64,000 bases of DNA. It comes from Thermoanaerobaculales bacterium. Lineage in GTDB: Bacteria; Acidobacteriota; Thermoanaerobaculia; Thermoanaerobaculales; Sulfomarinibacteraceae. The stretch spans positions 2,405 to 66,404 of the forward strand of contig DAOPQC010000009.1 of NCBI GenBank assembly GCA_035358815.1, written 5' to 3'. The notes under the pieces were generated by a model. That model did not search any database and was not told where the DNA came from. It was given only the letters and a program-made list of their open reading frames with translations. Below are positions 8,993 through 52,410 of this stretch, one piece after another. The position numbers and the translations under genes were made by a program. How positions within the stretch are numbered: position 1 is the stretch's first letter; each line of letters begins with the position of its first letter.

Positions 8993-10267
8993 ATGGGAAC
9001 CGAGGCACTGGAGAAGAAGCGCTGGGTGATCGCGATCGCCGCCGTCGTCATGCAGCTGTGCCTGGGCACGGTCTACGCGTGGTCGGTGTTCAAGATCCCG
9101 CTCAAGCAGGCCCATGGCTGGGCCGAGACCCCGACCCAGGTCACCTTCATGATCTGCATCGGCATGATCGGCCTCTCCGCCGCCTTCGGCGGGATGCTGG
9201 TCGACAAGAAGGGGCCGCGGTTCGTGGCCACGCTCGGCGGCATCCTGTTCGGGGTCGGCACGCTGCTGGCGGGCCTGGCCGATCAGGTCGGCAACCTGTG
9301 GCTGCTCTACCTCGGCTTCGGCCTGATCGCCGGCCTGGGCAACGGCTTCGGCTACGTCACGCCGATCGCCACCCTGATCCGCTGGTTCCCGGACAAGCGC
9401 GGCCTGGTGACTGGCCTCGCAGTCATGGGCTTCGGCGCCGGCGCGTTCTTCATGGGCCGCATCGCGCCGCAGATGATCGCCAGCCACCAGGTCAAGGACC
9501 AGGCCGGCGCGGTGATCGCCTCCGGCGTCGCTCCCACCTTCTACATCTGGGGCCTCATCTTCCTGGTGGCGGTGACGGCCGCCGCCCAGCTGTTCAAGAA
9601 CCCGCCCGCCGGCTGGCTGCCGGCCGGCTTCACGCCGCCCGCCAAGACGGTGTCGGCGGCCGACTCGCGCAACCTGGCCGAGGCCGTCCGCACGCCGCAG
9701 TGGTGGATGCTGTGGGCCATGCTGTTCCTCAACATCTCGGCCGGGCTCGGGCTGCTGTCGCAGCTGTCGCCCATGGCCCAGGAGTTGCTCAAGGTCAAGA
9801 TCAGCGACCCGGCCAAGCTCGCGATCGCCGGCGGCACCATCCTCGCCATTGCCTCGATCTTCAACGGCCTCGGCCGGCTGTTCTGGGCCTGGCTGTCCGA
9901 CGGCATCGGCCGCAAGGCGGTGTTCGTGACCATGTTCATCACCCAGGCCATCCTCTACGTGTTCCTGCCCCAGGTGGCCACGGCGACGCTGTTCGCGATC
10001 ATCGCCTGCTACCTGCTGGCCTGCTATGGCGGCGGCTTCGCCACCATGCCGGCCTTTGCCGCGGACAGCTTCGGGCCGGCCTGCATCGGCCGGGTCTACG
10101 GCACCATGCTCACCGCCTGGGGCGTGGCCGGGGTGGTCGGGCCCCTGGTCTTCGCCCAGCTCAAGAAGCAGCAGGCCCTGTACGTGGCCGCCGGCCTGCT
10201 GACCGTCGGCCTGGTGATCGCCATCGCCTATCGCCGTCCGGCGCCCAAGCCGGTTGCGGCGACGTAG
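8993..10267 (+). CDS. MFS transporter, oxalate/formate antiporter (OFA) family
   Basis: ATG 8993 follows aaggaaaggggga. 12 TM-type hydrophobic profile. N-terminal LGTVYAWSVF motif characteristic of OFA-family MFS proteins. Confidence 0.8.
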   Translation: MGTEALEKKRWVIAIAAVVMQLCLGTVYAWSVFKIPLKQAHGWAETPTQVTFMICIGMIGLSAAFGGMLVDKKGPRFVATLGGILFGVGTLLAGLADQVGNLWLLYLGFGLIAGLGNGFGYVTPIATLIRWFPDKRGLVTGLAVMGFGAGAFFMGRIAPQMIASHQVKDQAGAVIASGVAPTFYIWGLIFLVAVTAAAQLFKNPPAGWLPAGFTPPAKTVSAADSRNLAEAVRTPQWWMLWAMLFLNISAGLGLLSQLSPMAQELLKVKISDPAKLAIAGGTILAIASIFNGLGRLFWAWLSDGIGRKAVFVTMFITQAILYVFLPQVATATLFAIIACYLLACYGGGFATMPAFAADSFGPACIGRVYGTMLTAWGVAGVVGPLVFAQLKKQQALYVAAGLLTVGLVIAIAYRRPAPKPVAAT

Positions 10268-11471
10268 CGGCCGGCACGGCAGGCTCGCCGTGCCGTCCGG
10301 CTCATGGTCCGGCCCGGAGCCGCCGCGGCCGGGCCCCGTCGAGCGGGGCGAGCGCCCCGCTCGACGGTTGTTCGGGCCAGGGTGGCTGGTGGTCGGCAGC
10401 CGGCAGGATCGGGCCGAACGGGTGGAGCTGGCGGCCGCGGTCCTGCGCCGCCTGGCACCCGGGCGGCGGATCGCCGGGGTGATGGTGACGACAACGGCCG
10501 CCGACGGCGCCGGCGGCCTGCCGGCCGGCGGCTACTCCCTGCTCGAGGACGAGCAGCCGGAACCGGGAACCGCCCCGTTCGCGATGCGGCAGGCCGGAGC
10601 GCAGCGGGTGCTGTCGCTGCGGTCGCACCCCGACGCGCTCGCCGCCGGCTTCGCCGCGGCGGTGGCGCGCCTCGGACCCGGCGCCCTCGTGGTGGCCGCC
10701 TCCAACGCGCTGCGGCGGGTCGTGGACCCCGACCTGTTCCTCATGGTCGGCCGGCCGGGCGATGCCGCGGCCTGGCCGGCGGCAGGGGAGGTCGCGCACC
10801 TGGTCGACCGTTGGGTGGATCGGCGGGCAGCGGCGGCCGAGCTTGCGCCCGCCGGGCTGGCGGTCGCCGGGGGGCGCTGGATCCTGCCGGAGCCGGCCAC
10901 CGCCATCGTCCTCGCCGGCGGGCAGAGCCGCCGCATGGGCGTCGACAAGCGATTCCTGCGGCTTCATGACCGCCCCCTCCTGGAGCGCGTCGTTGCCACC
11001 CTGCGACCGTTGGTGGGCGAGGTCGTGATCGGCGCCAACGACCCCGAGCTCGGCCGTTCCCTCGGCCTGCGCACGATCGCCGACCGGGTGCCGGGCGAGG
11101 GCCCCCTGATGGCGCTCGCCTCGGCGCTCGAGGCCACCACGAGCGACCGCAACCTGCTGGTCGCGTGCGACCTGCCGGAGATCCCGGCATCGCTGGTGAC
11201 GGCCCTGCTCGCCGCCGCCCTGACCGCCGAGGCGGTGGTGCCGGTCGGCGCGGACGGCCTGCGGGAGCCGCTGCTGGCGGTCTACCGGCGGCGCCTGCTC
11301 GGCGACGCGAATGCCCTGCTCGCGGGCGGCGAGCGCCGGCTGTGGTGGCTCGCCGAGGGCTGCCGCACGGCCTTCCTCGAGCTGTCCCGCTTCGGCATCG
11401 ATCGGCTGCCCAACCTCAACACCCGCGACGATTTCGAGCGGTACCTGGAGGGCGGCGACCCGGCCCGCTGA
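10254..11471 (+). CDS. mobA: Molybdenum cofactor guanylyltransferase MobA with ~200-aa N-terminal extension (possible degenerate MobB-like domain)
   Basis: The C-terminal half has AIVLAGGQSRRMGVDKRFL, GPLMAL and LLVACDLP, which are MobA signature blocks. N-terminal half is of unclear function. Start codon uncertain. Confidence 0.7.
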   Translation: MRRRSGRHGRLAVPSGSWSGPEPPRPGPVERGERPARRLFGPGWLVVGSRQDRAERVELAAAVLRRLAPGRRIAGVMVTTTAADGAGGLPAGGYSLLEDEQPEPGTAPFAMRQAGAQRVLSLRSHPDALAAGFAAAVARLGPGALVVAASNALRRVVDPDLFLMVGRPGDAAAWPAAGEVAHLVDRWVDRRAAAAELAPAGLAVAGGRWILPEPATAIVLAGGQSRRMGVDKRFLRLHDRPLLERVVATLRPLVGEVVIGANDPELGRSLGLRTIADRVPGEGPLMALASALEATTSDRNLLVACDLPEIPASLVTALLAAALTAEAVVPVGADGLREPLLAVYRRRLLGDANALLAGGERRLWWLAEGCRTAFLELSRFGIDRLPNLNTRDDFERYLEGGDPAR

Positions 11472-29020: not shown

Positions 29021-29069
29021 GGGTCCTCCCAAAAGGCGTGGCGCCCCTCAGTGTAGCGCGGCGGCCCCC

Positions 29070-29278
29070 TCGCCCGCACCCGCGTCCGCGCCCGCTTCCG
29101 CGCCCCCGCCGTTGGGATGTCTCTCGTTCCCGTTCCCGTCCCCGTTCCCGTACCCGATGGCCGTTCGGGGTGGATTGAGTTCGTACGTGAAATTTGGAGA
29201 TTGCTGCGACGTCTGGGCGGCGTGCGGCGATCCGGGAACGGGATCGGGGTGGGGCCCTGGACCCTGACCCCGATCCCC
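29070..29278. repeat. Mosaic intergenic repeat locus A (beta C-array, 34-nt alpha module, unique core, G-arm, 11-bp hairpin)
   Basis: CCCGCN-type array at 29070-29110. Alpha module cgttcccgttcccgtccccgttcccgtacccgat at 29125-29158. Inverted partner atccgggaacgggatcggggtgggg at 29230-29254. Perfect hairpin gggatcggggt (29240-29250) / accccgatccc (29267-29277). Confidence 0.85.
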
Positions 29279-32758: not shown

Positions 32759-33045
32759 TCAATTCCGGGCTCAATTCCGGGCTCCAGACCCCGTTTCGAT
32801 TCCGGACTCTGGGCCGGTGCCCGTCCCCGCTTCCGCTTCCCCTTCCGCTTCCGCGCCCGGACGGTGCTCAGGACGCGGGAAAGCTGCGGGGGTCTTCGAC
32901 TTGCCACCGTGCTGGGCGGTTCGCTTCCAATGACCTACCCCCCAGGTCATCGGTGACCTTGTCGGCCCACACGGGCCCTGGGGGTGCTCAGAATGACCAC
33001 GGACAGAGTCGGAAGCGGGCGCGGAAGCGGGCGCGGACGCGGGCC
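32759..33045. repeat. Mosaic intergenic repeat locus B (12-nt tandem, C-arm, 150-nt core with hairpin, G-arm)
   Basis: tcaattccgggc x2 at 32759-32782. C-arm CGCTTCC-type at 32818-32858. Core hairpin atgacct/aggtcat at 32930-32950. G-arm at 33011-33045. Its bases 33017-33043 are the exact reverse complement of 29079-29105. Confidence 0.85.
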
Positions 33046-33077: not shown

Positions 33078-33908
33078 CTACCGGATGGTCATCCCCAGCG
33101 AGCGCAGCCGCTCCCGAGCGAGGTCGGCCTCGCGGCTGCCCGGGTGCTCGTAGACCACGTACTGCAGGTTGAGCACTCCCTGCCCCTTGTCGCCCAGCTT
33201 GAGGTAGAGCAGGCCCTTCTTGAGCTGGGCGGCGGGCGCCTTGTCGCTCGCCGGGTACTCCTCCAGCACCTGGTCGAAGATCGCGAGCGCCTCCTCGGAC
33301 TTGTCCTGGGCGTCGAGGCACTCGCCGATCCAGTACAGCGCGTTGTCCGACAGCTCGGTCGAGGGCCAGCGCCGCCGGTACTCGCCGAAGCCGTCAGCGG
33401 CGAGGTCGTAGTTGCCGCGCATGTAGTCCTCATAGGCCGCGCGGTAGAGCTCCTCCGGAGATGACGCCGCGGCGGAACCGGCCGCGGCGCCGTCCGGCGG
33501 GACGGCCGCGCCGCCCTCGCCGCCGGGCGCAGGTCCGGCGGCGGTCACCGGCGGCAGGTACTGGCCGGTCGCAGCGGCGGACCGAGCCCTGGCGAGCTCC
33601 TGGGAGATCGCCTCGAGGCGCGTGGTCGTCCGCTCCAGGCTGGCGTCGAGCGCCTCGATCTGCTCCTGGAGCTGCTCGACCCGCATCGCCAGGTCGGCGT
33701 TGGAGCGGGAGGTCTGGGCCGCGCCCTCCTGCAGCTGGCGCTTGATCGCGTCGAGGTCCTGCTTCGCCGGCATCGACTGCGACAGCTGCTCGACCTGAAG
33801 CTGGACGTCGGCGATCTCGCGGTGGAGCAGGGTCATGTCCTCGGACGAGGTGCAGGCTGCAAGCGGCAGCAGCGGGAGAGTCAGGACCAGCGTCCACAGC
33901 ACTCGCAT
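33078..33908 (-). CDS. cpoB: Tol-Pal system protein YbgF/CpoB (coiled coil + TPR)
   Basis: Lipoprotein-like signal LPLLPLAAC. N-terminal coiled coil (QLQVEQLSQ...). C-terminal YbgF TPR block (YRAAYEDYMRGNYDLA...ALYWIGECL). Directly downstream of pal. Confidence 0.8.
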   Translation of the reverse strand: MRVLWTLVLTLPLLPLAACTSSEDMTLLHREIADVQLQVEQLSQSMPAKQDLDAIKRQLQEGAAQTSRSNADLAMRVEQLQEQIEALDASLERTTTRLEAISQELARARSAAATGQYLPPVTAAGPAPGGEGGAAVPPDGAAAGSAAASSPEELYRAAYEDYMRGNYDLAADGFGEYRRRWPSTELSDNALYWIGECLDAQDKSEEALAIFDQVLEEYPASDKAPAAQLKKGLLYLKLGDKGQGVLNLQYVVYEHPGSREADLARERLRSLGMTIR

Positions 33909-33918
33909 CGCGAGCCTC

Positions 33919-34500
33919 CTAGCGCGCGGTGATGACGAAGTGGGCGCGCCGGTTGAGGCGCCACGCCTGTTCGCCGCTGCCGACCTCGAACGGCCTCTCC
34001 TCGCCGTACGAGATCGTGCGCAGGCGCTCGGCCCCGACGCCGAGGAAGATCAGGTAGTCGCGCACCGCCGCCGCCCGGCGCTCACCGAGCGCGAGGTTGT
34101 ACTCGCGTGTGTTGCGTTCGTCGCAGTGGCCCTCGATCAGGATCTGGATCGTGCGGTGCTGCTGCAGCCAGGCCGCGTTGCGGGCCAGCGCATCGCGGTA
34201 CTCGGGCTTGATGTCGTAGAGGTTGGTGTCGAAGAAGATGTCCTCGAGGTAGCCGCCGGCGTTGAGCAGCGCGAGGTCCTCGGGCAGCTCTTCGCGGACC
34301 TCCTCGGAAACCAGGGGCTCGGCAGTCGGCTCGCCGACGATCTCCTCCTCGATGCCCTCGGGCCCCTCACCGGTCCCGGGCGTGGTCGCGGTCGGCGTCG
34401 GAGCGGTCGGGGGCGGCACCTTGGTGCTCTTGCAGGCACCGAGGGTGGCCAGGAGGAGCACGGCGATCAGGGCTGCAGCGAGACGGGAAGTGGGTCTCAT
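33919..34500 (-). CDS. pal: Peptidoglycan-associated lipoprotein Pal (OmpA-like domain)
   Basis: Lipobox LLATLGAC. OmpA-C motifs: IFFDTNLYDIKPEY, IEGHCDERNTREYNLALGERRA, and ISYGEE. Confidence 0.9.
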   Translation of the reverse strand: MRPTSRLAAALIAVLLLATLGACKSTKVPPPTAPTPTATTPGTGEGPEGIEEEIVGEPTAEPLVSEEVREELPEDLALLNAGGYLEDIFFDTNLYDIKPEYRDALARNAAWLQQHRTIQILIEGHCDERNTREYNLALGERRAAAVRDYLIFLGVGAERLRTISYGEERPFEVGSGEQAWRLNRRAHFVITAR

Positions 34501-34627
34501 TCGAGGCCTCCTTGACGGTCACTCTACCAGCCCGGATCCGGGCTCACAAGCTCTTGAGAGCTGGTCTCGGCGGGGCGGTGTGGAATCGACGCGCGATGTG
34601 CCCGATGTCACTGGAGGAGAGGATATA

Positions 34628-34768
34628 GGGGATAGGGAATAGGGGATAGGGGAGAGGGGAGAGGGGAGAGGGAACAGGGGATAGGGGAGAGGGAGTAGGG
34701 GAGAGGGCCTAGCTGCCTTGTGGGGTAGCCATCCTGGCTGCCTTGTGGGGTAGCCATCCTGGCTGCCC
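34628..34768. repeat. Mosaic intergenic repeat locus C (12 G-tracts in GGGGA(T/G)A heptamer array + 25-nt tandem repeat)
   Basis: 34628-34707 holds 12 runs of G3-4 separated by 3-4 nt. 34713-34762 is ctgccttgtggggtagccatcctgg x2 (period 25) plus a partial third unit. Confidence 0.9.
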
Positions 34769-34770
34769 AG

Positions 34771-35358
34771 CTACGGGTTCGCGTCGTCATCCGCGAGGAG
34801 CCCGCCGCCGGGACGGTCGAGCCGGCCGGCCCGGTGGAGCTTGGCGAGGTAGTCGTAGACGACGATCGAGCCGGCCACCGCGAGGTTGAGGGAGGGCACG
34901 AGGCCCCACTGCGGGATCTGGACGACGGTCGCCGCGGTCGCGACCAGCTCCTCGGGGATGCCGCCGAGCTCGGCCCCGACCAGGAAGCACGGGCGATCCG
35001 GGTAGCTCGCCTCGAACAGGCCGACCGCGCGCCGGTGCAGCTCCACCGCCACCAGCTGCCAGCCACGCTGCTCGAGGTGCGACCGGAAGGCGCCGGCGTC
35101 GCGAAGGTGGAGAACGGTGGTGTAGAGCTCGGCGGTGCGCGCGGCCTCGACGTTCCAGTCACGCTCCCCGACCAGCAGCACCTCGGTCGCGGCGGTGGCG
35201 TGGGCGGTGCGCACCAGCGAGCCGACGTTGTGCTCCTTGGAGATGTTCCAGGCCGCGATGGCGAACGGCCGCAGCCCGTCGCGGTAGTCCTGGCGGCGGC
35301 GCTGCCGGCGGTCGGCGCGGCGCGCGGCGGTCCACGCGGCCTTCTTGGGATCCACCAT
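34771..35358 (-). CDS. TrmH/SpoU-family RNA 2'-O-methyltransferase
   Basis: SpoU motifs: NVGSLVRTA, FLVGAELGGIPEE, and IPQWGLVPSLNLAVAGSIVVYD. Confidence 0.75.
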   Translation of the reverse strand: MVDPKKAAWTAARRADRRQRRRQDYRDGLRPFAIAAWNISKEHNVGSLVRTAHATAATEVLLVGERDWNVEAARTAELYTTVLHLRDAGAFRSHLEQRGWQLVAVELHRRAVGLFEASYPDRPCFLVGAELGGIPEELVATAATVVQIPQWGLVPSLNLAVAGSIVVYDYLAKLHRAGRLDRPGGGLLADDDANP

Positions 35359-35398
35359 CGGACCCAGGGTAGAGCATGCGGCCGCCGCCGGGAACCAC

Positions 35399-35434
35399 AG
35401 AAAAAACGAAACCCCGCGCGCGGCGGGATTTCGT
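35399..35434 (-). terminator. Rho-independent terminator
   Basis: The minus strand reads acgaaatcccgcc-gcgc-gcggggtttcgt followed by TTTTTT. That is a ~12-bp GC-rich stem and a 6-T run. Confidence 0.75.
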
Positions 35435-35514
35435 CATGGTGGGTATCCCCACCCGGACTTCTTCAGTGGGTTTCGCGGCCGTAAAGTCCGTTGAACACCC
35501 GCGGTCCGAAGGGA
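35400..35514 (-). ncRNA. Candidate ~115-nt structured RNA or attenuating leader (family unknown)
   Basis: Bracketed by the promoter and terminator above. Internal helices: gtcc/ggac, cggactt/aagtccg (7 bp), and ggtggg-gata-cccacc. No convincing ORF. Confidence 0.35.
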
Positions 35515-35521
35515 CACCTCC

Positions 35522-35550
35522 AATATGTGTGCACGCCGCGGCTGTGTCAA
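35522..35550 (-). promoter_or_regulatory. Candidate sigma-70-type promoter
   Basis: On the minus strand: TTGACA (35550-35545), a 17-nt spacer, then CATATT (35527-22). Located inside the cdd/trmH-like gap. Confidence 0.45.
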
Positions 35551-35652
35551 GGGGGCGTGGGAGCTCGTCTTCGGGAGCGAATCCGACCGCGCCGACGGTG
35601 AGACTCCCGGCCGCTGGATGAGCTTGGCTGCAGGCCTCGATCTGCCCGGGGA

Positions 35653-36063
35653 TCAGCCGCGCTCGAGCGTCCGCCCGTCGAAGGCGTGGGGCAGCAGCTG
35701 GGACACCGAGGTGACGACCCGTTCACCGGCCGGGTTGGCCAGGATGACCGGGAAGTCACCGAACTCCGACAGCACCTGCCGGCAGGCGCCGCACGGCGAG
35801 GCCGGCGGCACGGAGTCCGTGACCACGGCGAGCGCCTGGAAGCGGCGAGCGCCGGCGGCCACGGCCGCCGCCACCGCGTTCCGCTCGGCGCAGACCGAGA
35901 GGCCGAACGAGGCGTTCTCGACGTTGCAGCCGCTGCTCAACCGTCGGTCCGGCAGCAGCAGCGCCGCTCCGACCCGAAACTGCGAGTAGGGGGCGTAGGC
36001 GTGGTCCCGCGCCGCGGTGGCCGCTGCGACCAGGCGGTCGATGTCATCAGAAGAGAAATCCAT
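35653..36063 (-). CDS. cdd: Cytidine deaminase
   Basis: ATG 36063. Zinc motifs CAERNA and PCGACRQ. The upstream 46 codons of the track ORF run through repeat DNA. Confidence 0.85.
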   Translation of the reverse strand: MDFSSDDIDRLVAAATAARDHAYAPYSQFRVGAALLLPDRRLSSGCNVENASFGLSVCAERNAVAAAVAAGARRFQALAVVTDSVPPASPCGACRQVLSEFGDFPVILANPAGERVVTSVSQLLPHAFDGRTLERG

Positions 36064-36125
36064 GGCTCCATGATACCGAGCCGAATGAGGTGCGGAGCGC
36101 CCGTTGTCGATTCTGACCTTCTCTC

Positions 36126-36278
36126 GGGAACGGGAACGGGGACGGGAACGACAGCTGGCCGTTGTGGGGTCGCCATCCTGGCTGCCTTGTGGGGTAGCCA
36201 TCCTGGCTGCCCGGAAGCGGGCGCGGGCGAGGGGGCGGGCGGGGGCCCTACCCCCTATTCCCTACATCCCATCCCCTC
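36126..36278. repeat. Mosaic intergenic repeat locus D (alpha G-array, 25-nt tandem, beta G-array, inverted gamma array)
   Basis: gggaacgggaacggggacgggaac at 36126-36149. 36153-36212 is ~95% identical to 34711-34768. ggaagcgggcgcgggcgagggggcgggcggggg at 36213-36245. C-rich ccctaccccctattccctacatcccatcccctc at 36246-36278. Confidence 0.9.
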
Positions 36279-36281
36279 AAG

Positions 36282-36307
36282 AAAAAGGTGACCGCCCGAA
36301 GGCGGTC
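36282..36307 (-). terminator. Probable Rho-independent terminator of the FecR-like gene
   Basis: The minus strand reads gaccgcc-ttcg-ggcggtc, then acc and TTTTTCTT. It lies 40 nt past the stop at 36347. Confidence 0.55.
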
Positions 36308-36346
36308 GATGGAGACGTGTGATGTCGCTTGAGGATCTGGCTGTCG

Positions 36347-38491
36347 TCACCGCCGGTGAGAACCGGACGACGGTCGCGAGCTCGTCGCCCCGCCGCCGGA
36401 GCTCCCCGCGTGCGATCGGGAGGTCGCGCCGCTCCCGGCCGAGCGGGGCGCTGACGAGGAACCGCGAGCCGAGGCCGTCGGGTTGCGAGGCGCGGGCCGG
36501 CTCGAGCTGACGGTCGGGCCGGTGCGGGACGGCGCGGAGCGCGGCACGATCACCGGGCTCTGCGATCCGCCGCCACCTGCCGGCCCCGGCATCACCCGGC
36601 TGCTCGGCGCTCGGTAGCGGGAGCCCAGGTCGACCGGCTGCCGGGCGAGGCTGCCGCCCCTCAGGTAGGGGGACGCAGCCTGCGCGCCTGACGGGCTCCC
36701 GGCCGACGCCGGCCGTGACCGCGGAACGAAGGGGTTGCTGGCGACGGACCCGCTGTGGACCCGGCTGTTCGTCCCCCCGCCGGTGGACGGGCGAGCCGTG
36801 CCTGCTGCCGGCTGCCCGGAACCCCCGTGCAGGGGCGACGACGGCGACGTGGTCAGCACGCGCCGGTCGGTGGCCGTCTCCGCGGCCCGGGGGGCCGCGG
36901 TCCCGCGCGCCGCGGTTGAGCCGGCCGCCGTCTCGCGAGGCGCGTTGGTGCGGACCGTCGTGCTCCGCGATCCGGCCGAGCGCCGCGTGACCGCCTCGAG
37001 GGTCGTCGGCTCGACGAGCCGCAGCGCGTCCTCGCCGCGCAGGCTCGCGTCGCGCGCCATGACCGGTGTGATGTCGCGGGTGGTGCCGCGCTCGACGTCG
37101 CGGAAGACCCGCTCGAGCTCGGCTGACGGGCGCGCCATCGACGGCGGCGCGGTGGCCAGGGCATCGGACATGACGACGCCCATGGCGTCCTGGCCGCGCA
37201 GCGCGCTCTCGCCCGGCTGCACGAGCCGGGACAGGTGCGGGCTCGCGAAGTCCCGGGTCGAGATGACGTTCCAACCGGCGCGGTCGATCCCGGCCACGCG
37301 CACCCGGCCCTTGAGATCGAGCGCCACCTCGTTCGGCCGGGTGATCGCGGCGCGATGGACGTCTCTCGCGGACCCGCCTTCGCCCCCGCTGCCCGGGCGC
37401 GGAATCGCGTCCCGCCGCGGCGGCTGGCCTCCCCCGCCGCCGGGGTGGCCGGGGTAAGGATCGTAGGGGTAGCCGTAGTAGTAGCCGTAGCTCGGCCAGT
37501 ACCATCCCCAGTAGTAGCCGCACGGGGCCCAGCCGACGTAGCCGGGCCACCAGCACCAGCTCACCCAGGCCGGGCTCCAGTAGGGCTGCCAGCCCCAGAC
37601 CCAGCCGAAGCCGGCAGCGAAGTACCACGAGCCGTAGTGGTACGGCAGCCAGCCCCAGGGCTCGTAGGAGATCCACGACCATCCGGGCTCGGTCCAGTAC
37701 CAGCGCCCGGCGGTGTAGGGACGCCACGAGTCGTCCACGGTCGGCTGCCAGGCCCAGGTGTTGTACTCGGAGACGTAGACCCAGTTGCCGTAGTTGTCGA
37801 GCTGGGCGGCCTGGCGGTCGTAGCGGGCGTCGACGTGGACCGCGCTCTCGCCGCGGATGACCTGCCGGCGCTGCTCGACCCAGCTTGCGAAGTCGTCGCC
37901 GATGTTCAGCACGGACTCGGAGCCGACCACCTCGCCGCCGCTCACCAGGGTCGCTGACTGGGCGCGCACGAGCACGCCGCCCGCGATGGTGGAGGCCTCG
38001 GCGAGCCCTTCCCACACCTCGACCCGGAGGCCCTCGGAGGGCAGCGCCTCCACCCGGTAAAGCCCGGTGTCGTTGAGGTAGACGGTGGCGGACCGGCCAT
38101 CGATGCGGACCGGCTGGTTGGTCAACCGATGGGGGCCGACCTCGACCACGATCGTGCCCTCGCCGAGGAACAGCACGGTCTGCTCGGCGTTGACGTCGCG
38201 GCTGAACGCCACGGCGTCGAGGCTAAGGGTCGTGTACTCGTCGATCCAGACCGCGTTCCCGTCGGCGAGCATGACCTCCATCCGCGCCTCGCGGGCGGTG
38301 TCGATGCGGTCCCCCGGAGCGAGCGGCATGTTGATGACGGCCTCGATGCTGTCCTGCTGGGTCGCCGGCTGGACGGTGGCGTAGCGCTCGAGGTAGGAGA
38401 TGTAGCTCAGCGAGGTCAGCTCGTCCCCTTCGGAGGCCAGCAGCGGCCCCGCGACCCCGGCCAGGAGTGCCGTCAGTAGGAGCTTCCTCAT
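36347..38491 (-). CDS. FecR-like domain protein with extreme W/Y-rich segment and ~330-aa low-complexity tail
   Basis: ATG 38491 follows gggaggtgg. Signal peptide MRKLLLTALLAGVAGPLLA. FecR-like beta-rich N-terminal domain. A W/Y/G-rich block (WYWTEPGWSWISYEPWGWLPYHYGSWY...GYYWGWYWPSYGYYYGYPYDPYPG), then an S/P/R/A-rich tail. Confidence 0.6.
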   Translation of the reverse strand: MRKLLLTALLAGVAGPLLASEGDELTSLSYISYLERYATVQPATQQDSIEAVINMPLAPGDRIDTAREARMEVMLADGNAVWIDEYTTLSLDAVAFSRDVNAEQTVLFLGEGTIVVEVGPHRLTNQPVRIDGRSATVYLNDTGLYRVEALPSEGLRVEVWEGLAEASTIAGGVLVRAQSATLVSGGEVVGSESVLNIGDDFASWVEQRRQVIRGESAVHVDARYDRQAAQLDNYGNWVYVSEYNTWAWQPTVDDSWRPYTAGRWYWTEPGWSWISYEPWGWLPYHYGSWYFAAGFGWVWGWQPYWSPAWVSWCWWPGYVGWAPCGYYWGWYWPSYGYYYGYPYDPYPGHPGGGGGQPPRRDAIPRPGSGGEGGSARDVHRAAITRPNEVALDLKGRVRVAGIDRAGWNVISTRDFASPHLSRLVQPGESALRGQDAMGVVMSDALATAPPSMARPSAELERVFRDVERGTTRDITPVMARDASLRGEDALRLVEPTTLEAVTRRSAGSRSTTVRTNAPRETAAGSTAARGTAAPRAAETATDRRVLTTSPSSPLHGGSGQPAAGTARPSTGGGTNSRVHSGSVASNPFVPRSRPASAGSPSGAQAASPYLRGGSLARQPVDLGSRYRAPSSRVMPGPAGGGGSQSPVIVPRSAPSRTGPTVSSSRPAPRNPTASARGSSSAPRSAGSGATSRSHAGSSGGGATSSRPSSGSHRR

Positions 38492-38564
38492 CGTCCACCT
38501 CCCGTTCCGCCAACAGGCAGTGCAACCGACGTGCCAGCGGGATTTCGGGAACGCGGTGCGTTCA

Positions 38565-38940
38565 CCCGTTTCCGTTTCCGTCTCCGCGCCCCTGCCCGAG
38601 ATGGCGCTCGTGCACCGTGCGGTCTCATCGGGGACGGAGACGGGCACGGAGACGGGCAGGGAGACGGGCAGGGACGCGGGCGGCGGCCATTTGACCTGTC
38701 ACCGGTCACCGATCACTCTCCCGGAGGCGGGAACGGGAACGGGAATCCGGCTTCGCCTTCCGGCTCCGTTCGGCGAACTCCGCCGTGACGAGTCGGCTCC
38801 GCCGTGACAAGCGGGGACGGGCACCCTTCGACTCGCGGCGCTGCGGCGCCGCTCGCTCAGGGCAGGCCCCTCGGGCTCGGAAGCGGAAGCGGGCGGGCGC
38901 CCAATCCCCCAGATCCCAGATCCTGGCCGGGTGGGGGCGG
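38565..38940. repeat. Mosaic intergenic repeat locus E
   Basis: C-arm cccgtttccgtttccgtctccgcgcccctgcccg at 38565-38598. 31-nt core. G-arm (GGAGACGGGCA-type) at 38630-38686. gggaacgggaacgggaat at 38729-38746. ggaagcggaagcgggcgggcgc at 38879-38900. cccagat x2 at 38908-38921. Confidence 0.8.
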
Positions 38941-38941
38941 A

Positions 38942-39646
38942 TCACCGAGGGTGGAGGCGGGAGATCTCGACGAGCTGCTGGGACTGGCGGACCTTGACCA
39001 GGGTGCCGGCGGGGTAGCAGCCGCCGCGCAGGGTCGCGTTGGGGTAGGTCACGCTGCCCGGCCCGAGCAGCACGCCGGGGTTGAGAACGGTGTTGCAGCC
39101 GGTCTTGCAGCCGTCGCCGAGCACCGCGCCGAACTTGCGCAATCCGGTGTGGACGATCTCGCCCCGGTGGTGGAAGGTGACCTCGCGGCCGACGTTCTTG
39201 ACGTTGGACAGGATGGTGCCGGCGCCGAGGTTGACGTCCCGGCCGAGCACCGAGTCGCCGACGTAGTTCTGGTGCGGGGCCTTGGCCCCGGGCAGCAGCA
39301 CCGAGCCCTTGACCTCGGTGTGGGCGCCGACCAGGCTGCCGCTGCCGAGCACCACGTGCTCGCGAACGTAGGCGCCGGTCCGCACCGTCACCCCGGCCTC
39401 GAGGACCGCGGGGCCGACGATGACCGCGCCCGGCTCGATCCGGCAGCCGGCGGCGATCGCGATCCGGTCGCCGAGGAGGTGCACCCCGACCGGCACCTCG
39501 ATCTCGACGTCCCATCGCGACCAGTCTTCGAGATACGCCCGGAGACGGTCGCCGAGGGCGCTCCACACCGGCGCGTCGAGGCCGAACAGGTCGCGGTGCG
39601 GGAATCCCTCGAGGTCGAAGAACTGGCTGGCGCTCAGCTCGTTCAT
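38942..39646 (-). CDS. Left-handed beta-helix (hexapeptide-repeat) transferase, GlmU C-terminal-domain-like
   Basis: Continuous [LIV]-G-x4 hexapeptide periodicity (IEPGAVIVGPAVLEAGVTVRTGAYVREHVVLGSGSLVGAHTEVKGSVLL...). Confidence 0.7.
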   Translation of the reverse strand: MNELSASQFFDLEGFPHRDLFGLDAPVWSALGDRLRAYLEDWSRWDVEIEVPVGVHLLGDRIAIAAGCRIEPGAVIVGPAVLEAGVTVRTGAYVREHVVLGSGSLVGAHTEVKGSVLLPGAKAPHQNYVGDSVLGRDVNLGAGTILSNVKNVGREVTFHHRGEIVHTGLRKFGAVLGDGCKTGCNTVLNPGVLLGPGSVTYPNATLRGGCYPAGTLVKVRQSQQLVEISRLHPR

Positions 39647-40875
39647 GCCGGAGCCTCCTCGAGCTCCTCGGCTCGGCGCTTGACCACGACCACCGTCTGG
39701 TCGTCGGTGGGGTGCGACGTCTGGCTGAACTCTGCGAGATCGGCGATCACCCGCTCGACGATCGCCACCGGGTCGCGCCGGCGCGCCGTGTGCACGACGT
39801 GCAGCAGCCGGTCCTCGCCGTACTCCTCGGTCGACCCTGGAGCCCTGGCCTCGATGACGCCGTCGGTGTACAGGACGAGCAGCTCACCCGGATCGATCTG
39901 GGTGATGCCGATCTCGTAGGTGGCTGACGGCGTCGGGCCGATGATCATGCCGCCCGTCTGCAGCCGGTCGGTGAGCCCGTCGTCGTGGATCAGCAGGGCC
40001 GGCGGGTGCCCGGCGTTGCAGTAGAGCACGGTGCCGTTGGCGTGAAGCTCGGCGAGGAACAGGGAGACGAACTTGGTGGCGAGGCGGCTGCGGTGGATGA
40101 TCGTGTTGAGTCGCTCGACGGTGGCGGTCAGCTTGAACTCCCGCGACAGGCCCATGCGCAGGCCGGTGAAGACGTCGCGAACCTGGAGGGCGGCGGGCAG
40201 GCCGTGGCCGGTGGCGTCGGCGACCACCACCACGAAGAGGTCCTCGGCGAGGGTGATGACGTCGTAGAAGTCGCCGCCGACGACCTCGGCGGTCACGCTG
40301 CGGGCGGCGATCTCGAAATCGCCGGTGCGAGGGAGGTGGCGCGGCAGGATCGAGCTCTGGATGAGCCGGGCCTCCTCCATGACCTCCTGCATTTGCTCGT
40401 CGCGCAGCTTCTGGTTGATCGCGAGGCGGATGATGTTGAGGGTCGCGATCAGGTCGTCGCGGACCTCGATGCCCTGCAGGATGTCGAAGGACAGCACGAA
40501 CCTGCCGTCGGCCACCGACACCGCGGCGAACCAGTCGCGCGTTCCGAGGTCGGCCTCGAGGCGCTGGTCGAGCCGTGCGTCGTCCCGGGACATGACCAGC
40601 GACCCGGTGTCGAGCAGCTGCTCGAAAGGCGGGTAGGTCCGCCAGATCCGCAAGCCGAGCGGCGCCTTGGCGACGTCGCCGAAGGTGGTCACCAGCTCGT
40701 AGCTGCCGTTGTCCTGCGAGTAGATCCGACCGCCGCGGATTCCGAGGTCCTCGGCGAAGACCCGCGCCAGGAGCTGCGCGGTGTCGTGGATGGTCTCGAG
40801 CGGCGTCGAACCCAGCGCGATCGTCTCCAGCGCCTGCTCGATGCGCCGGAAGAGGGAGATGGAACGACGCGGCAT
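39643..40875 (-). CDS. PP2C/SpoIIE-family serine phosphatase with N-terminal GAF-like sensor domain
   Basis: ATG 40875. Motifs GDFYDV, VVADATGHG, and LVLYTDGVIEA...DDQTVVVV. Its stop overlaps the start of the LbH gene by 4 nt. Confidence 0.8.
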   Translation of the reverse strand: MPRRSISLFRRIEQALETIALGSTPLETIHDTAQLLARVFAEDLGIRGGRIYSQDNGSYELVTTFGDVAKAPLGLRIWRTYPPFEQLLDTGSLVMSRDDARLDQRLEADLGTRDWFAAVSVADGRFVLSFDILQGIEVRDDLIATLNIIRLAINQKLRDEQMQEVMEEARLIQSSILPRHLPRTGDFEIAARSVTAEVVGGDFYDVITLAEDLFVVVVADATGHGLPAALQVRDVFTGLRMGLSREFKLTATVERLNTIIHRSRLATKFVSLFLAELHANGTVLYCNAGHPPALLIHDDGLTDRLQTGGMIIGPTPSATYEIGITQIDPGELLVLYTDGVIEARAPGSTEEYGEDRLLHVVHTARRRDPVAIVERVIADLAEFSQTSHPTDDQTVVVVKRRAEELEEAPA

Positions 40876-40942
40876 GACCGGATCATGCCACGGGACCGAG
40901 CGCCAGCACAAGAACGCCGGTCCCCGAGAGCCAGGTGGTATC

Positions 40943-41461
40943 ATGCGCGCCGGCGTTCGCGCCGCAGGAGGTCGAGTGTCGCGAGCTCTGGCGCTCGGTT
41001 CGGTCGTGCTCGTGGTGGCTGTCGCAGCCGGCTGCGGCGGTCGCCGGGACGGCGCGCCGTCCCCGCAGGTCGATCAGGCGGTGACCTCGCACGCCCGCGC
41101 CGAGGTCAAGTGGGAGACCGATTGGAGCCGCGCCTTCGAGCGAGCGCGACGCGAAGGCAAGCCGGTGCTGGTGAACTTCTACGCGGAGTGGTGCGTCTGG
41201 TGCAAGCACCTCGAGACGATCACCTTTCGCGATCAGAAGGTCGCGGCCCTGCTCGCGGAGCGGGTGGTGCCGCTCAGCGTCGACATCGACGGCGACGTCC
41301 AGCAGCTGATCCGCGATCACCGCATCGAGGCCCCGCCGACGATCGTGGTGTTCGACCCGGCCGGGGCGGAGCTGGGGCGCATCCCCGGCTACCTGCCGCC
41401 CACCGGCTTCCTCGGCACCGTCGAGCGGATGCTGGCGGCCCCGCCGCCCGCCTCGAGCTGA
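40943..41461 (+). CDS. Exported thioredoxin-fold protein (CxxC)
   Basis: Lipoprotein-like signal VVAVAAGCGG. Active site FYAEWCVWCK. cis-Pro region APPTIVVFD. Confidence 0.75.
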   Translation: MRAGVRAAGGRVSRALALGSVVLVVAVAAGCGGRRDGAPSPQVDQAVTSHARAEVKWETDWSRAFERARREGKPVLVNFYAEWCVWCKHLETITFRDQKVAALLAERVVPLSVDIDGDVQQLIRDHRIEAPPTIVVFDPAGAELGRIPGYLPPTGFLGTVERMLAAPPPASS

Positions 41462-41596
41462 TCGGCGCCGGCCGAGGCCGCGCCGGGTGCGGGCGCCCGG
41501 CGGCGGCACGAACCGGTCAGAATGCGCGCAGCGCCCTCCGAGCACCGTGCGGGGCCACGCCAGCCACGACGACCCCGCTCGGAGCCCGTCCAGCGG

Positions 41597-44041
41597 CTAA
41601 TCGTCGTCCGATTCGGAGCGCCGGTTCGCGACCTCGACGGCTGCCGGGCTCGGCATCGGCTCTCCGGGCCGCGGCGTGTAGAAGGCGAGCTGGAAGGGCC
41701 ACGGCATCTCGGTAAGGTTCGCCGGCCGCGCGCCGCACTCGCTCGGAGCCGGCTCGGTGCTGTCCAGGAAGGCCTCGAGAACCACGGCGCCGTGGTTCGG
41801 GCACGGCGGGATCGCGCTCTCTCCGGTGGCATAGTCCACCGGGGTGAAGACGATCCCCGAGGGGATCGGAAAGGTCTCGGTCCGGGCGCCGGCGTCGACG
41901 GTTGCGAGGTAGGCCTTGATGAAGTCGTTCCACAGCGGCTGCGCCGCGACCGCGCCGGTCATGTTGCGGCCGATCGGCTGCTTGAGGTCCCTGCCGACCC
42001 AGACCCCGACCGTCAGCCGCGGGGTGAACCCGACGAACCAGGCGTCCGAGAACTTGTCGGTGGTTCCGGTCTTGCCGGCCAGATTGGCCTCGATGGCCTG
42101 CGCCGACACACCGGTGCCGCGGTCGATCACCCCCTCGAGCACGCTCAGGGCGAGGTAGGCGGCAGGCGCCGAGATGGCGCGCTGGCTGCGCGGGAAGAAG
42201 CGCTCGACCTGCCGGCCGTCACGGTCGTAGACCGCGGTGATCGCGTAGGGCTCCGGGACCTCCCCCAGGTTGGCGATCCCGGCGTAGGCACGGACCAGGT
42301 CGACGAGCCGCACCTCGAGGGCGCCGAGGGCGAGTGACGGGAAGGGATGCAGCTCGGTGCTGACGCCGAAGCGCTTGGCCATCGCCACCACCGCATCACC
42401 GCCGACCAGCTGCTGGAGCTTGACCGCCGATGCGTTGTAGCTGTGCTCGAGCGCCCGGCGGAGTGTGGTGACGCCGTAGTACCTGTTGTAGTAGTTCCTC
42501 GGGCAGTAGGCGAGCTGGCCGGTCGAGTCGGGGAGCAGAAACGGTGCGTCGAAGATGGTGTCCGCCGGGGTGAATCCCTGCTCGAACGCGGTCAGATAGA
42601 CGAACGGCTTGAAGGCCGAGCCGCACTGCAGGGTCGACTGGACCGCGCGGTTGAACTCGGAGCGCTCGAAGTCGAAGCCCCCGACCATGGCCAGGATCGC
42701 CCCGGTGCTGTTGTCCATGGCGACGAGCGCGCCCTCGACCTTCGGCTCCTGGAGCAGCTCGACCGGGATCGGCGCCGCCGGGTCCGCCGGAAGCTCCTCC
42801 GGCAGGCCGACCAGCACGAGGCTCCCCGGCCGGAGGATCCGGATCAGCGAGCTGGTGCCGGTCCAGCGGGCGCCGGCGAGGTCCAGCGTCGCCTGCCGGC
42901 CCGCGACTCGCAGGGCCGCCCGGTCGCTCGAGACTCGCTGGACCACGGCACGGACGATGGCGCTCGGCTGCAGCTCGAGGTGGGACCACGAAGGGTCCCG
43001 GTAGGCATCGGGAGACTCCGCGAGGCCCTGGTCGACGACGTTGGGTGGCGTTCGATAGCCGGCCACCCTCTTCTCGAGGTTGACGAGCCCGCGGCGCACG
43101 ACGCGCTCCGCGATCGCCTGCAGCTCCGGGTCCATGGTGACGTGGACCCGTAGGCCGCCGGTGTAGAGCTCGCTGGTGCCGTACCTCTCCCCGACCTCCT
43201 TGCGCACCATCTCGAGGAAGTAGGCGCCGTTCGCGATGTACTCCCGGTGCAGCCCCACGTTGAGCGGCGTCGCGACCGCGGCGGCGTGCTCCTGCCGGTC
43301 GATGAAACCGAGCTCCCGCATCCGGTCGAGCACCTTGTTGCGGCGCTGCAGCGCCGCCTCGGGGCGGGTGAACGGGTTGTAGAGGTTGTTGGCGCTCGGG
43401 ATGATGCCCGCGAGCAGCGCCGCCTCCGGCAGCGTCAGCTCGAGCGCCGGCTTGGCGAAGTAGAGCCGCGCCGCCGCCTCGACCCCGTAGGCGCCGTGCC
43501 CGAAGAAGATCTGGTTGGCGTAGAAGGTCAGGATCTGTTCCTTGGTGTAGCGCTTCTCGATGTCGATCGCGAGCAGCGCCTCCTTGATCTTGCGCTGCAG
43601 GGTGTTCTCCCGCTCCAGGAACAGGTTGAGCGCGAGCTGCTGGGTGAGGGTCGAGCCGCCCTGGGTGATGACCCGGTCGCGCCCGGACACCAGGTTGCGC
43701 AGGATCACGGCCGCCGCCCGGACGATCGCCTTGGGGTCGACGCCCCCGTGATCGAAGAACTCGGCGTCCTCGATGGCGACGATGGCCAGCTTGAGATGCT
43801 CGGGGATCTGGTCGGCGGTGAGCTCGATGCGCTGCTCGATGGCGTAGGAGGCCAGCTTCTGACCGTCCGGCCCGATGACCTCGGTGGTCACCGCCGGACG
43901 GAAGGTGGCGAGCTCATCGACCTGCGGCAGATGCACGAACTGGGCGAGGATCCAGCCCACGACCGCCCCGGCCGCGACCCCGGCAGCGGCCACCGCGGCG
44001 ACCTTCATCAGCAGGGGTTTCGACCGCTCCAGCGCGCCCAC
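41597..44041 (-). CDS. mrcA: Class A penicillin-binding protein 1A (glycosyltransferase + transpeptidase)
   Basis: GT51 motifs EDAEFFDHGGVD, GGSTLTQQ and RKIKEA. Transpeptidase motifs SAFKPF (SxxK) and KTGTT. Confidence 0.9.
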   Translation of the reverse strand: MGALERSKPLLMKVAAVAAAGVAAGAVVGWILAQFVHLPQVDELATFRPAVTTEVIGPDGQKLASYAIEQRIELTADQIPEHLKLAIVAIEDAEFFDHGGVDPKAIVRAAAVILRNLVSGRDRVITQGGSTLTQQLALNLFLERENTLQRKIKEALLAIDIEKRYTKEQILTFYANQIFFGHGAYGVEAAARLYFAKPALELTLPEAALLAGIIPSANNLYNPFTRPEAALQRRNKVLDRMRELGFIDRQEHAAAVATPLNVGLHREYIANGAYFLEMVRKEVGERYGTSELYTGGLRVHVTMDPELQAIAERVVRRGLVNLEKRVAGYRTPPNVVDQGLAESPDAYRDPSWSHLELQPSAIVRAVVQRVSSDRAALRVAGRQATLDLAGARWTGTSSLIRILRPGSLVLVGLPEELPADPAAPIPVELLQEPKVEGALVAMDNSTGAILAMVGGFDFERSEFNRAVQSTLQCGSAFKPFVYLTAFEQGFTPADTIFDAPFLLPDSTGQLAYCPRNYYNRYYGVTTLRRALEHSYNASAVKLQQLVGGDAVVAMAKRFGVSTELHPFPSLALGALEVRLVDLVRAYAGIANLGEVPEPYAITAVYDRDGRQVERFFPRSQRAISAPAAYLALSVLEGVIDRGTGVSAQAIEANLAGKTGTTDKFSDAWFVGFTPRLTVGVWVGRDLKQPIGRNMTGAVAAQPLWNDFIKAYLATVDAGARTETFPIPSGIVFTPVDYATGESAIPPCPNHGAVVLEAFLDSTEPAPSECGARPANLTEMPWPFQLAFYTPRPGEPMPSPAAVEVANRRSESDDD

Positions 44042-44153
44042 GTTGACAGGGTAGCAGAGGAAGCATGACCCGCTCGAGGCACGATCGTGGCGAAGCCGAG
44101 GCGGCGGTCGCTGGGTCGGAGGGGGCGGATCAGGTCGGCTGCATCGTGCTGCC

Positions 44154-49786: not shown

Positions 49787-49924
49787 CGTTCCCGTTCCCG
49801 TGCCCGCTCCCGTACCCGATGGCGGATTCCTGCCCACTATTGCGCGGAGCCGTGGGAGCCAAGCCGGTTTCACCTCCGTCCTCTTCTGCAATCGGGAACG
49901 GGGACGGGAACGGGAGCGGGAACG
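49787..49924. repeat. Mosaic intergenic repeat locus F (34-nt alpha module, 70-nt core, inverted 34-nt alpha module)
   Basis: cgttcccgttcccgtgcccgctcccgtacccgat at 49787-49820 is 32/34 identical to 29125-29158. atcgggaacggggacgggaacgggagcgggaacg at 49891-49924. The arms are ~85% complementary. Confidence 0.9.
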
Positions 49925-51386: not shown

Positions 51387-51967
51387 TCAACTGCATCACC
51401 CTCGCCGATCTGGCGGTCCATGGCGCCCACCAGAAGGGCCACTTTCGCCTCTCCTCCGGGCTCCACTCGTCCGACTACCTGCAGTGCGCCCTCTACCTCG
51501 CCAACCCGGTGCGCGCCGAGCGCGCCGGCCAGGAGCTGGCGCAGTCGATCACCGCGGCGATGGTCGAGCCGGGTGCGATCGTCGCACCAGCCCTCGGCGG
51601 GCTGATCATCGGGCACGAGACCGCGCGAGCGTTCAGGGTGCCGTTCTTCTTCACCGAGCGGGTGGAGGGGAAGATGGCGCTGCGCCGGGGCTTCGGGGTC
51701 GATCCCAAGCAGGCGATCGTGGTCGTCGAGGACGTGGTGACGACCGGCGGCTCGTCGAACGAGGTCATCGACCTGCTCGAGGGCCTCGGCGCCTGCGTCA
51801 TCGGCGTCGCGTCGCTGGTGAACCGCTCGGACGCTGACAACCCCTTCGACCCTCGGCCCTACACCGCCCTGCTGCGGGCCTCGTTCCCGACCTGGAAGCC
51901 CACCGCATGCCCGCTCTGCCGGCAGGGCAGGCCGCTCGTCAAGCCGGGGTCGAGGCCGGTCAAGTAG
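51383..51967 (+). CDS. pyrE: Orotate phosphoribosyltransferase
   Basis: GHFRLSSGLHS and the PRPP loop VVVVEDVVTTGGS. The GTG start overlaps the stop of the upstream regulator (gtga). Confidence 0.85.
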   Translation: MINCITLADLAVHGAHQKGHFRLSSGLHSSDYLQCALYLANPVRAERAGQELAQSITAAMVEPGAIVAPALGGLIIGHETARAFRVPFFFTERVEGKMALRRGFGVDPKQAIVVVEDVVTTGGSSNEVIDLLEGLGACVIGVASLVNRSDADNPFDPRPYTALLRASFPTWKPTACPLCRQGRPLVKPGSRPVK

Positions 51968-51973
51968 CGCTCA

Positions 51974-52410
51974 GGGGATAGCGATGAGGGGATAGGGGCT
52001 AGGGCCCCTGCCCGCCCGCTGCCGGCTGCACGGACGGCTTCGTTCCCGTTCCCGTTCCCGTGCCCGCGCCGATCCGCCTCCGCGCGCGACGTCGTTCCCG
52101 TTCCCGTTCCCGTTCCCGAACCCGCGCCCGCTTCCGCGCCCGGTTCCGAGCGACGTTTCGCTCCCCTTCCCGTTCCCGTCCCCGTTCCCGATCCCGTGTC
52201 CGCTCCCGCTCGTTCGCTCCGTCCTCGAGAGCGCTTCGCGCCGATTCTCTGGAAGCGCTCCCCGAGGGTGCCACCTTTGGCGATTTCGGGTCCTGAGCAA
52301 TTTGTCAGGAGCATCGTCGTCCCGAAATCGCCAAAGATGGCACGCCCGCGGGAGGCGCTTCCCTCGCTCTCTCCTCGTCCCCGGGGAGCGGAAGCGGGTG
52401 CGGGCGCAGC
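51974..52410. repeat. Mosaic intergenic repeat locus G (gamma G-array, three C-rich hexamer arrays, 113-nt imperfect palindrome, beta G-array)
   Basis: Gamma array at 51974-52004. C-arrays at 52041-52070, 52093-52147 and 52164-52212. Palindrome at 52251-52363 with 23-nt arms (52268-52290 / 52321-52343, 1 mismatch) and apical hairpin tcctga/tcagga. gagcggaagcgggtgcgggcgc at ~52385-52410. Confidence 0.9.

Follow-up and report, generated by a model that had tools for sequence, protein, structure and literature searches.

A tandem 25-nt hairpin unit in a Holophagae-like genome is probably a mobile REP of the RAYT-associated kind

The 25-nt unit that recurs at two sites in the window, by which we mean the whole 64-kb stretch of DNA analysed here (GC ~70%), is probably, judging from its sequence, a REP (repetitive extragenic palindrome) associated with the RAYT/TnpA(REP) HuH-Y1 transposases, and the REPs of subclass 2.7 are its closest counterparts. 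The units are real and mobile, and the class into which they fall (REP/RAYT) is a known and not a novel one. Nothing found here overturns the accepted picture of these systems. A little-studied REP family of the subclass-2.7 type is extended to another acidobacterial lineage, and its core sequence is near-identical in three phyla.

Results

A scan of the window found the exact 25-mer CTGCCTTGTGGGGTAGCCATCCTGG at 34713-34737, 34738-34762 and 36182-36206, and no exact match occurred in dinucleotide-preserving shuffles. TRF reported a period of 25 at 34708-34767 (2.4 copies) and at 36162-36211 (2.0 copies). The observation in an earlier note on this DNA, that a tandem 25-nt unit is present at two loci and that the first of these holds two exact units and a partial third, was thereby confirmed. 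The natural phase of the unit is TTGTGGGGTAGCCATCCTGGCTGCC, which consists of TT, a GTGG foot and an imperfect 8-bp stem, GGTAGCCA/TGGCTGCC, closed by a TCC loop of 3 nt; it folds as ......((((((((...)))))))). This anatomy is characteristic of REPs. Locus C contains two identical units on the plus strand, C1 (34718..34742) and C2 (34743..34767). Directly to the left of C1 lies AGCTGCC (34711..34717, +), read from the sequence as a remnant of another unit's 3′ end (…GGCTGCC). Locus D, on the same strand, contains one variant unit, D1 (36162..36186), followed by a perfect one, D2 (36187..36211), identical to C1 and C2. Its left remnant, AGCTGGCCG (36153..36161, +), reads as that of locus C with two 1-nt insertions. 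In D1, which has the sequence GGTCGCCA, an A to C change produces a C·T mismatch in the stem. This type of variant, GTGGGGTCGCCATCCTGGCTGCC, is also present in four fetched loci (L022, L040, L042 and L047; L numbers denote loci retrieved from other genomes and metagenomes), which indicates a lineage of copies and not random decay.

The two blocks had been described as sharing 58 nt with three substitutions in the first unit. Three differences do exist and all fall in, or just before, the first unit, but one of them alone is a substitution, GGT(C)GCC, the other two being insertions of one base each, AGCTG(G)CC(G)TT (bases concerned in brackets), and the block of locus D measures 60 nt against 58 nt for locus C. 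Both blocks terminate in GGCTGCCC and both directly follow a short tandem array, as had been noticed before. At locus C this is a heptamer array, GGGGAKA, of ~12 units (34616..34707, +; TRF), which belongs to the mosaic spacer and lies outside the REP itself. Locus D is placed between (CGGGAA)4 (36125..36150, +; TRF) and (GCGGGC)n (36217..36246, +), beyond which C-rich heptamers continue to ~36280. The flanks of the two loci are unrelated, and the statement that they are not duplicated was correct.

All genes neighbouring both loci are housekeeping genes on the minus strand. They encode a YbgF-like TPR protein (33078-33908), OmpA/Pal (33919-34500), a SpoU methylase (34771-35358), cytidine deaminase (cdd, 35653-36063, with its true start at 36063) and a FecR/DUF6600 protein (36347-38647). 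Locus C starts 3 nt past the SpoU stop codon, C2 ending 3 nt before that codon (34771-34773, minus strand). Locus D is found between the start of cdd and the intrinsic terminator of the upstream FecR-like gene, GACCGCC-TTCG-GGCGGTC with a T-run (36290..36307, minus strand; terminator scan), which forms the far end of the mosaic spacer and is conserved in L008, L057, L058 and L059. The MATPQGSQDG… readings, rightly called spurious in the earlier note, are minus-strand translations of the units. They make up the N-terminus of ORF 35653..36201(-) and also occur inside ORF 34608..35162(-).

A hairpin with a GT[AG]G foot is the common design of the family. All four units in the window begin with TT-GTGG, and related units have either GTGG or GTAG. 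At one stem position the foot strand forms a T·G pair and the complementary strand an A·C mismatch. When folded as DNA, a single unit reached -6.2 kcal/mol on the foot strand (z = -2.6 vs shuffles), whereas the complementary strand performed no better than shuffles (z = -0.8); the hairpin is short, and its foot-strand stability is modestly above that of shuffled sequence. In the window and the fetched loci, 114 of 179 GT[AG]G + 8/3/8 hairpins had a TCC or TCT loop, and shuffled sequence yielded ~64 GT[AG]G + 8/3/8 hairpins with any loop. Of 100 non-redundant units, 86-92% had TT before the foot, and the commonest spacing of units on the same strand was 25 nt. Across loci the same design is found with other arms, namely GGTAGGCT/AGCCTGCC, GGTGGGCA/TGCCTGCC, CGCAGCCA/TGGCTGCC (GTAG foot) and, in Moorena, AACAGGCA/TGCCTGTT (GTAG foot), with a TCC or TCT loop throughout. 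Among 23 distinct variants 94.6% of cells were paired, a figure inflated because the variants had been pre-selected for at least 7/8 pairs. Changes on both sides were seen in 5/8 pairs, and the covariation score was reached in 0/500 shuffles. The variety of fully compensated stems (GCCA/TGGC, GGCT/AGCC, GGCA/TGCC, GGCC/GGCC) is nevertheless real.

A search for the 23-nt core (exact match, one N allowed) returned 53 loci, 14 in genomes and 39 in metagenomes from activated sludge, wetland and similar samples. The earlier note had named occurrence at the two sites alone, by a simple segmental duplication including the flanks, as the finding that would speak against its reading, and this was not what the search produced. 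The genome loci belong to three Holophagae MAGs, two Bythopirellula MAGs and Moorena producens 3L; of two related MAGs, one has exact copies at 5 separate loci and the other at 7. Identity to the core is 23/23 in Bythopirellula (L005/L035, L011) and 22/23 in Moorena producens 3L (L009). The flanks have a GC content of 0.54-0.56 in Bythopirellula and 0.44 in Moorena, and such low-GC native flanks indicate that the copies are native there and not contamination. An inverted partner of the core with a GTAG foot accompanies it in both (GTAGTATAGGCTTCTAGCCTGTT in Bythopirellula, GTAGAACAGGCATCTTGCCTGTT in Moorena), and at the Moorena locus relatives lie inside tandem repeats. One locus from a Holophagae MAG, L008, is syntenic with 35900-44058 of the window at 79-86% nucleotide identity, and the window thus comes from an organism related to that of L008.

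The units are nearly always extragenic, and many lie 3-60 nt beyond a stop codon; with respect to the genes beside them, both orientations occur. Within the 64-kb window they are dispersed over two loci and lie outside good ORFs. A composite of stereotyped order, (GGGAAC)n-gaNatccgggcg-REP-cgcggaagcgggcg, recurs in L001, L008, L018, L043 and L048 and at locus D, so that REPs are combined with other short motifs in a BIME-like manner. A search of viral contigs gave no hits. A plasmid search with REP triplets gave scattered intergenic matches on Nostocales plasmids with no RAYT nearby, and searching the literature for the motif and related strings brought up nothing relevant.

Other types of element were not detected at the units. 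There is no T-run, and the terminator scan called only 36307-36290 and 35435-35405. The units abut without spacers and repeat with a period of 25 nt, the length of one unit, at variance with a CRISPR array. Rfam at gathering score, run on the window and five loci, matched no unit and found only two tRNAs, and at E <= 1 it found nothing in 34480-36360; ARAGORN reported only tRNA-Val and tRNA-Asp, both far off.

Mobility was assessed by locating SpoU orthologues on contigs and comparing the SpoU to Pal and FecR to cdd spacers. The SpoU to Pal spacer holds two units in the window and three in L054 (90% protein identity), where the subtypes are different ones and one unit is inverted; in L058/L059 (81%) it holds none, despite conservation of the pal promoter and leader. 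In the FecR to cdd spacer the two units of the window correspond to one intact and two degenerate copies in L008, where they are part of a duplicated composite of ~95 nt, and to no units in L057, L058 and L059. Arrays built of different, internally compensated subtypes were found in L041 (four), L039 (five) and L049 (three), and among 17 non-redundant adjacent head-to-tail pairs 8 had different inner stems and 4 were identical. Such mixing of compensated subtypes within arrays rules out slippage as their source and fits successive insertion beside an existing unit, although slippage may have produced the two identical units at locus C. BIME-like arrays of alternating orientation are present in L019, L020, L021 and L039. 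The comparison of sequences therefore supports the proposal of the earlier note that the unit would be a discrete mobile module and not a product of slippage in situ; the 53 other loci, presence and absence at orthologous sites and the arrays of mixed subtype all point the same way.

Discussion

The assignment to RAYT-associated REPs builds on the near-identity of the unit to published REPs and on a link between a sister subtype and a RAYT gene. REPs were defined by Quentin et al. 2018 as hairpins with a 5′ GT[AG]G foot that flank tnpA(REP)/RAYT genes, and genes of subclasses 2.7 and 2.8 are flanked by REPs with this foot (PMC6006769). Among the subclass 2.7 entries of Table S1 in that study are AcylA01 (AFZ59732.1), with the REPs GTGGGGTAGGCATCCTGCCTGCC and GTGGGGTGGGCATCCTGCCCGCC, and SusiA01 (ABJ86258.1), with GTGGGGCAGCCATTCCTGGCTGTC and GTGGGGCAGCCAATCCTGGCTG. 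The window core agrees with the first AcylA01 REP at 21/23 positions, and both differences amount to the swap of one compensatory pair. The two SusiA01 REPs are likewise close to the window core, the common part being GTGGGG-CAGCCA…TGGCTG. From its abbreviation only, AcylA01 is presumably Anabaena cylindrica. Window unit and published REPs alike have a GTGG foot, an 8-bp stem, a TCC loop and a length of 23 nt (PMC6006769). They differ in that the window host is Holophagae-like with ~70% GC, that the window units form pure head-to-tail tandems of 25 nt within hexamer and heptamer mosaics, and that no RAYT gene is seen in the available DNA.

The second line of evidence is provided by the RAYT P0148 (PF01797; DHLH, WQ and YILQNP motifs). 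In L067 its gene is preceded by the inverted pair GTAGCGCAGCCCTCCG[C/T]GGCTGCG, which has the foot and both arms in common with the GTAGCGCAGCCATCCTGGCTGCC subtype. In L003 and L054 that subtype and the window subtype form tandems, and the L041 array includes a variant of the GTAGCGCAGCCATCCTGGCTGCC subtype differing by 1 nt (…GCT). The RAYTs recovered here carry DHLH and not the [ND]HVH motif of subclass 2.7 (PMC6006769); the subclass assignment accordingly rests on the REP sequences and not on a protein from the Holophagae-like lineage.

We infer that a cognate RAYT in the genome of the window moves the units. Neither a HuH…Y regular expression nor tblastn with two RAYTs detected a Y1/RAYT gene in the 64-kb window or the ~430 kb of REP-bearing loci. 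A RAYT profile search yielded 6762 relatives; no RAYT gene flanked by exactly the window REP was recovered, and the relatives P0269 and P0246 were flanked by other REPIN families. Several candidates were considered and rejected. Class-3 TnpA(Y1), known from Planctomycetes and Acidobacteria, has REPs with a CnGA foot and not GT[AG]G (PMC6006769). In the same study the acidobacterium Solibacter usitatus is a class-3 host in the main text, and SusiA01 also has class-3 rows in Table S1. The gene between the REP clusters of L006 is signal peptidase I, and the neighbours of the Moorena units are not RAYTs. Between the two REP clusters of L021, 1 kb apart, lies a MazF-toxin/antitoxin pair (10311-10855, minus strand), which is bracketed over 10176-11222 by REP arrays of alternating orientation; these clusters may mark a hotspot of insertion or recombination.

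A plasmid search with E. coli RayT led to subclass-2.2-like genes. The plasmid RAYT of Candidatus Chlorohelix allophototropha was rejected as the cognate type, being related to the Pseudomonas type. As an observation in its own right, this annotated RAYT-like transposase gene (L064, 1330-2140; DHLH…YIENNP) is flanked by TCT-containing hairpins with GTGG or GTGT feet and by tandemly repeated 16-mers, (ctggagcagcctctca)n, and represents another RAYT adjoining short tandem arrays.

The family shares several traits with the REP/BIME system of E. coli and its RayT (YafM), in which hairpins with a GTAG-type foot are likewise extragenic and often just past stop codons, and are combined with other short motifs; alternating arrays comparable to BIMEs are seen in the related loci L020, L021 and L039. 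E. coli REPs differ in being ~35 nt long with a bulged stem. E. coli RayT is a member of subclass 2.2 and, as a tblastn query, had no match in the window or the fetched loci. REPINs (Bertels & Rainey 2011, PMC3116915) are similar in that short REP families exist as populations of variants. They are tied to a single-copy RAYT, and the same would be expected of the window REP family. The classical replicative unit of REPINs is an inverted doublet that forms a hairpin, in contrast to the direct head-to-tail copies of the window; REPIN-like inverted pairs were found only elsewhere, in Bythopirellula (L005) and in L021 and L067.

Three other explanations of the units have to be weighed against RAYT-driven REPs. 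It is unlikely that they are small mobile repeats of the cyanobacterial SDR (small dispersed repeat) kind that spread without a RAYT, either through hexamer and heptamer arrays recombining or undergoing gene conversion with one another, or along a route mediated by RNA or another enzyme. SDRs are reportedly hairpins of 21-27 nt that are inserted in heptamer (STRR) arrays and show insertion polymorphism, their mobilising agent being unknown. The units described here are 25-nt hairpins embedded in short tandem arrays and present or absent at orthologous sites, their relatives in Moorena are located inside tandem repeats, and no RAYT was seen near any of ~100 units. A RAYT is nevertheless indicated by the GT[AG]G foot and by the close agreement, near-identity, with REPs flanking RAYT genes. 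It may also be that SDRs are RAYT REPs in their own right, which would leave no true separation between the two explanations. Passages in PMC5861425 and PMC3116915 cite Elhai et al. 2008 (Genome Res 18:1484) for SDRs in the sense given above; as far as the passages concerned go, SDRs are reported only in Nostocaceae, which sets them apart from the window units.

Less probable still is that the units are kept by selection for a host role, as hairpins at the 3′ end that stabilise or attenuate mRNA or as repeated protein-binding sites. E. coli REPs stabilise upstream mRNA and bind gyrase and IHF, and these known roles lend the idea some appeal, as do the position of many units 3-60 nt beyond a stop codon (3 nt in the case of locus C and SpoU) and a sequence nearly unchanged over three phyla. 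The orientation of the units relative to flanking genes is mixed, however, and on this ground a strand-specific RNA function was rejected. The transcribed strand at both loci has the A·C stem mismatch and folds no better than shuffles (block z = -0.25 and 0.13, single unit -0.8). Mixed orientation, the lack of a T-run or a called terminator at either block and the lack of an Rfam match together make a strand-specific RNA role unlikely; the 25-50-nt small RNA product or DNA-binding periodicity envisaged by the earlier note gained no support from the mixed orientation and the Rfam result. In close relatives, moreover, the orthologous spacers are without units and the adjacent promoter and leader are conserved. 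That the two loci are a local accident of replication slippage and a small segmental duplication, with no wider meaning, is hardly credible. C1 and C2 are indeed identical and directly adjacent, and the left remnant AGCTG(G)CC(G) is common to both loci, but this account is contradicted by the core in 53 loci of other genomes and metagenomes, and the unrelated flanks of C and D, the D1 variant found again in other genomes and the mixing of compensated subtypes in arrays elsewhere all speak against it.

If the units are RAYT-associated REPs, their spread may be pictured as follows. While the DNA is single-stranded, e.g. during replication, a unit would fold into its small hairpin, and the RAYT would recognise the foot and hairpin, and cut and rejoin the single strand beside it. 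Units could in this way reach new intergenic sites, preferentially beside existing units, and head-to-tail or alternating arrays would be the outcome. In the Holophagae-like chromosome the units reside inside fast-evolving hexamer and heptamer mosaic spacers between housekeeping genes. The mixed-subtype head-to-tail arrays hint at such insertion beside existing copies.

One may speculate further, in a reading that we regard as possible but doubtful, that one REP-RAYT pair has crossed Acidobacteriota, Planctomycetota and Cyanobacteria with its recognition sequence of ~23 nt near-unchanged, living inside short tandem arrays. The arrays would grow by the enzyme inserting any compatible stem subtype beside an existing unit, and the same activity on single-stranded DNA would either target the surrounding hexamer and heptamer arrays or give rise to them as by-products. 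The array settings that can be cited for this reading are the hexamers and heptamers of the window, the STRR-like repeats of Moorena and the 16-mer beside a different RAYT in Chlorohelix. If it is true, the intergenic spacers described here, unusually modular and quick to change, are products of one transposase.

The window units have no demonstrated host function, and their visible effect is the creation of spurious ORF starts. The false start codons and ORFs (MATPQGSQDG…) that they generate should be masked when Holophagae-like genomes are annotated. The units also mark spacers that turn over much faster than genes, which is of use in strain typing and a hazard in assembly.

Many of the window's intergenic spacers are composed, mosaic-like, of hexamer arrays (CGGGAA, CGGAAG, CGGGCG…), heptamer arrays (GGGGATA…) and a few longer modules. 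Further mosaic spacers with (CGGNNN)n hexamer and heptamer arrays lie at 29067-29156, 32759-33044, 38566-38923, 49787-49924 and 51965-52239. The hexamer arrays are often inverted pairs around a centre of 70-150 nt, as at 49787-49818 vs 49893-49924 and at 32827-32854 vs 33010-33044. Heptamer copy number shifts between near-identical contigs, with 10 vs 17 units in the FecR to cdd spacers of L058 and L059. A palindromic module of ~50 nt, cccttcgactcgcggcgctgNggcgccgctcgctcagggcaggc, is found at 38823-38870 and in L006, L008, L010, L012 and L025; it adjoins hexamer arrays and REPs in several genomes and resembles a second family of dispersed repeats. At 38745-38815 and in L001, L007, L013, L015 and L032 lies a third module that recurs, tccggcttcg…cgccgtgacgag, which is sometimes duplicated. 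Its reverse complement contains GAGCCGGAAG, which by eye is reminiscent of the class-3 TnpA(Y1) REPs of Planctomycetes and Acidobacteria (PMC6006769 Table S1).

A stretch of ~125 nt on the minus strand between cdd and SpoU (within 35400-35550) is a candidate for an unannotated small RNA or a tiny ORF. A sigma-70-like promoter, TTGACA-17-CATATT (35550-35522), precedes by ~85 nt a strong intrinsic terminator (35435-35405, with a T6 run). Rfam gave no match to it at E <= 1. The stretch is almost invariant in four orthologous loci, and its flanks vary.
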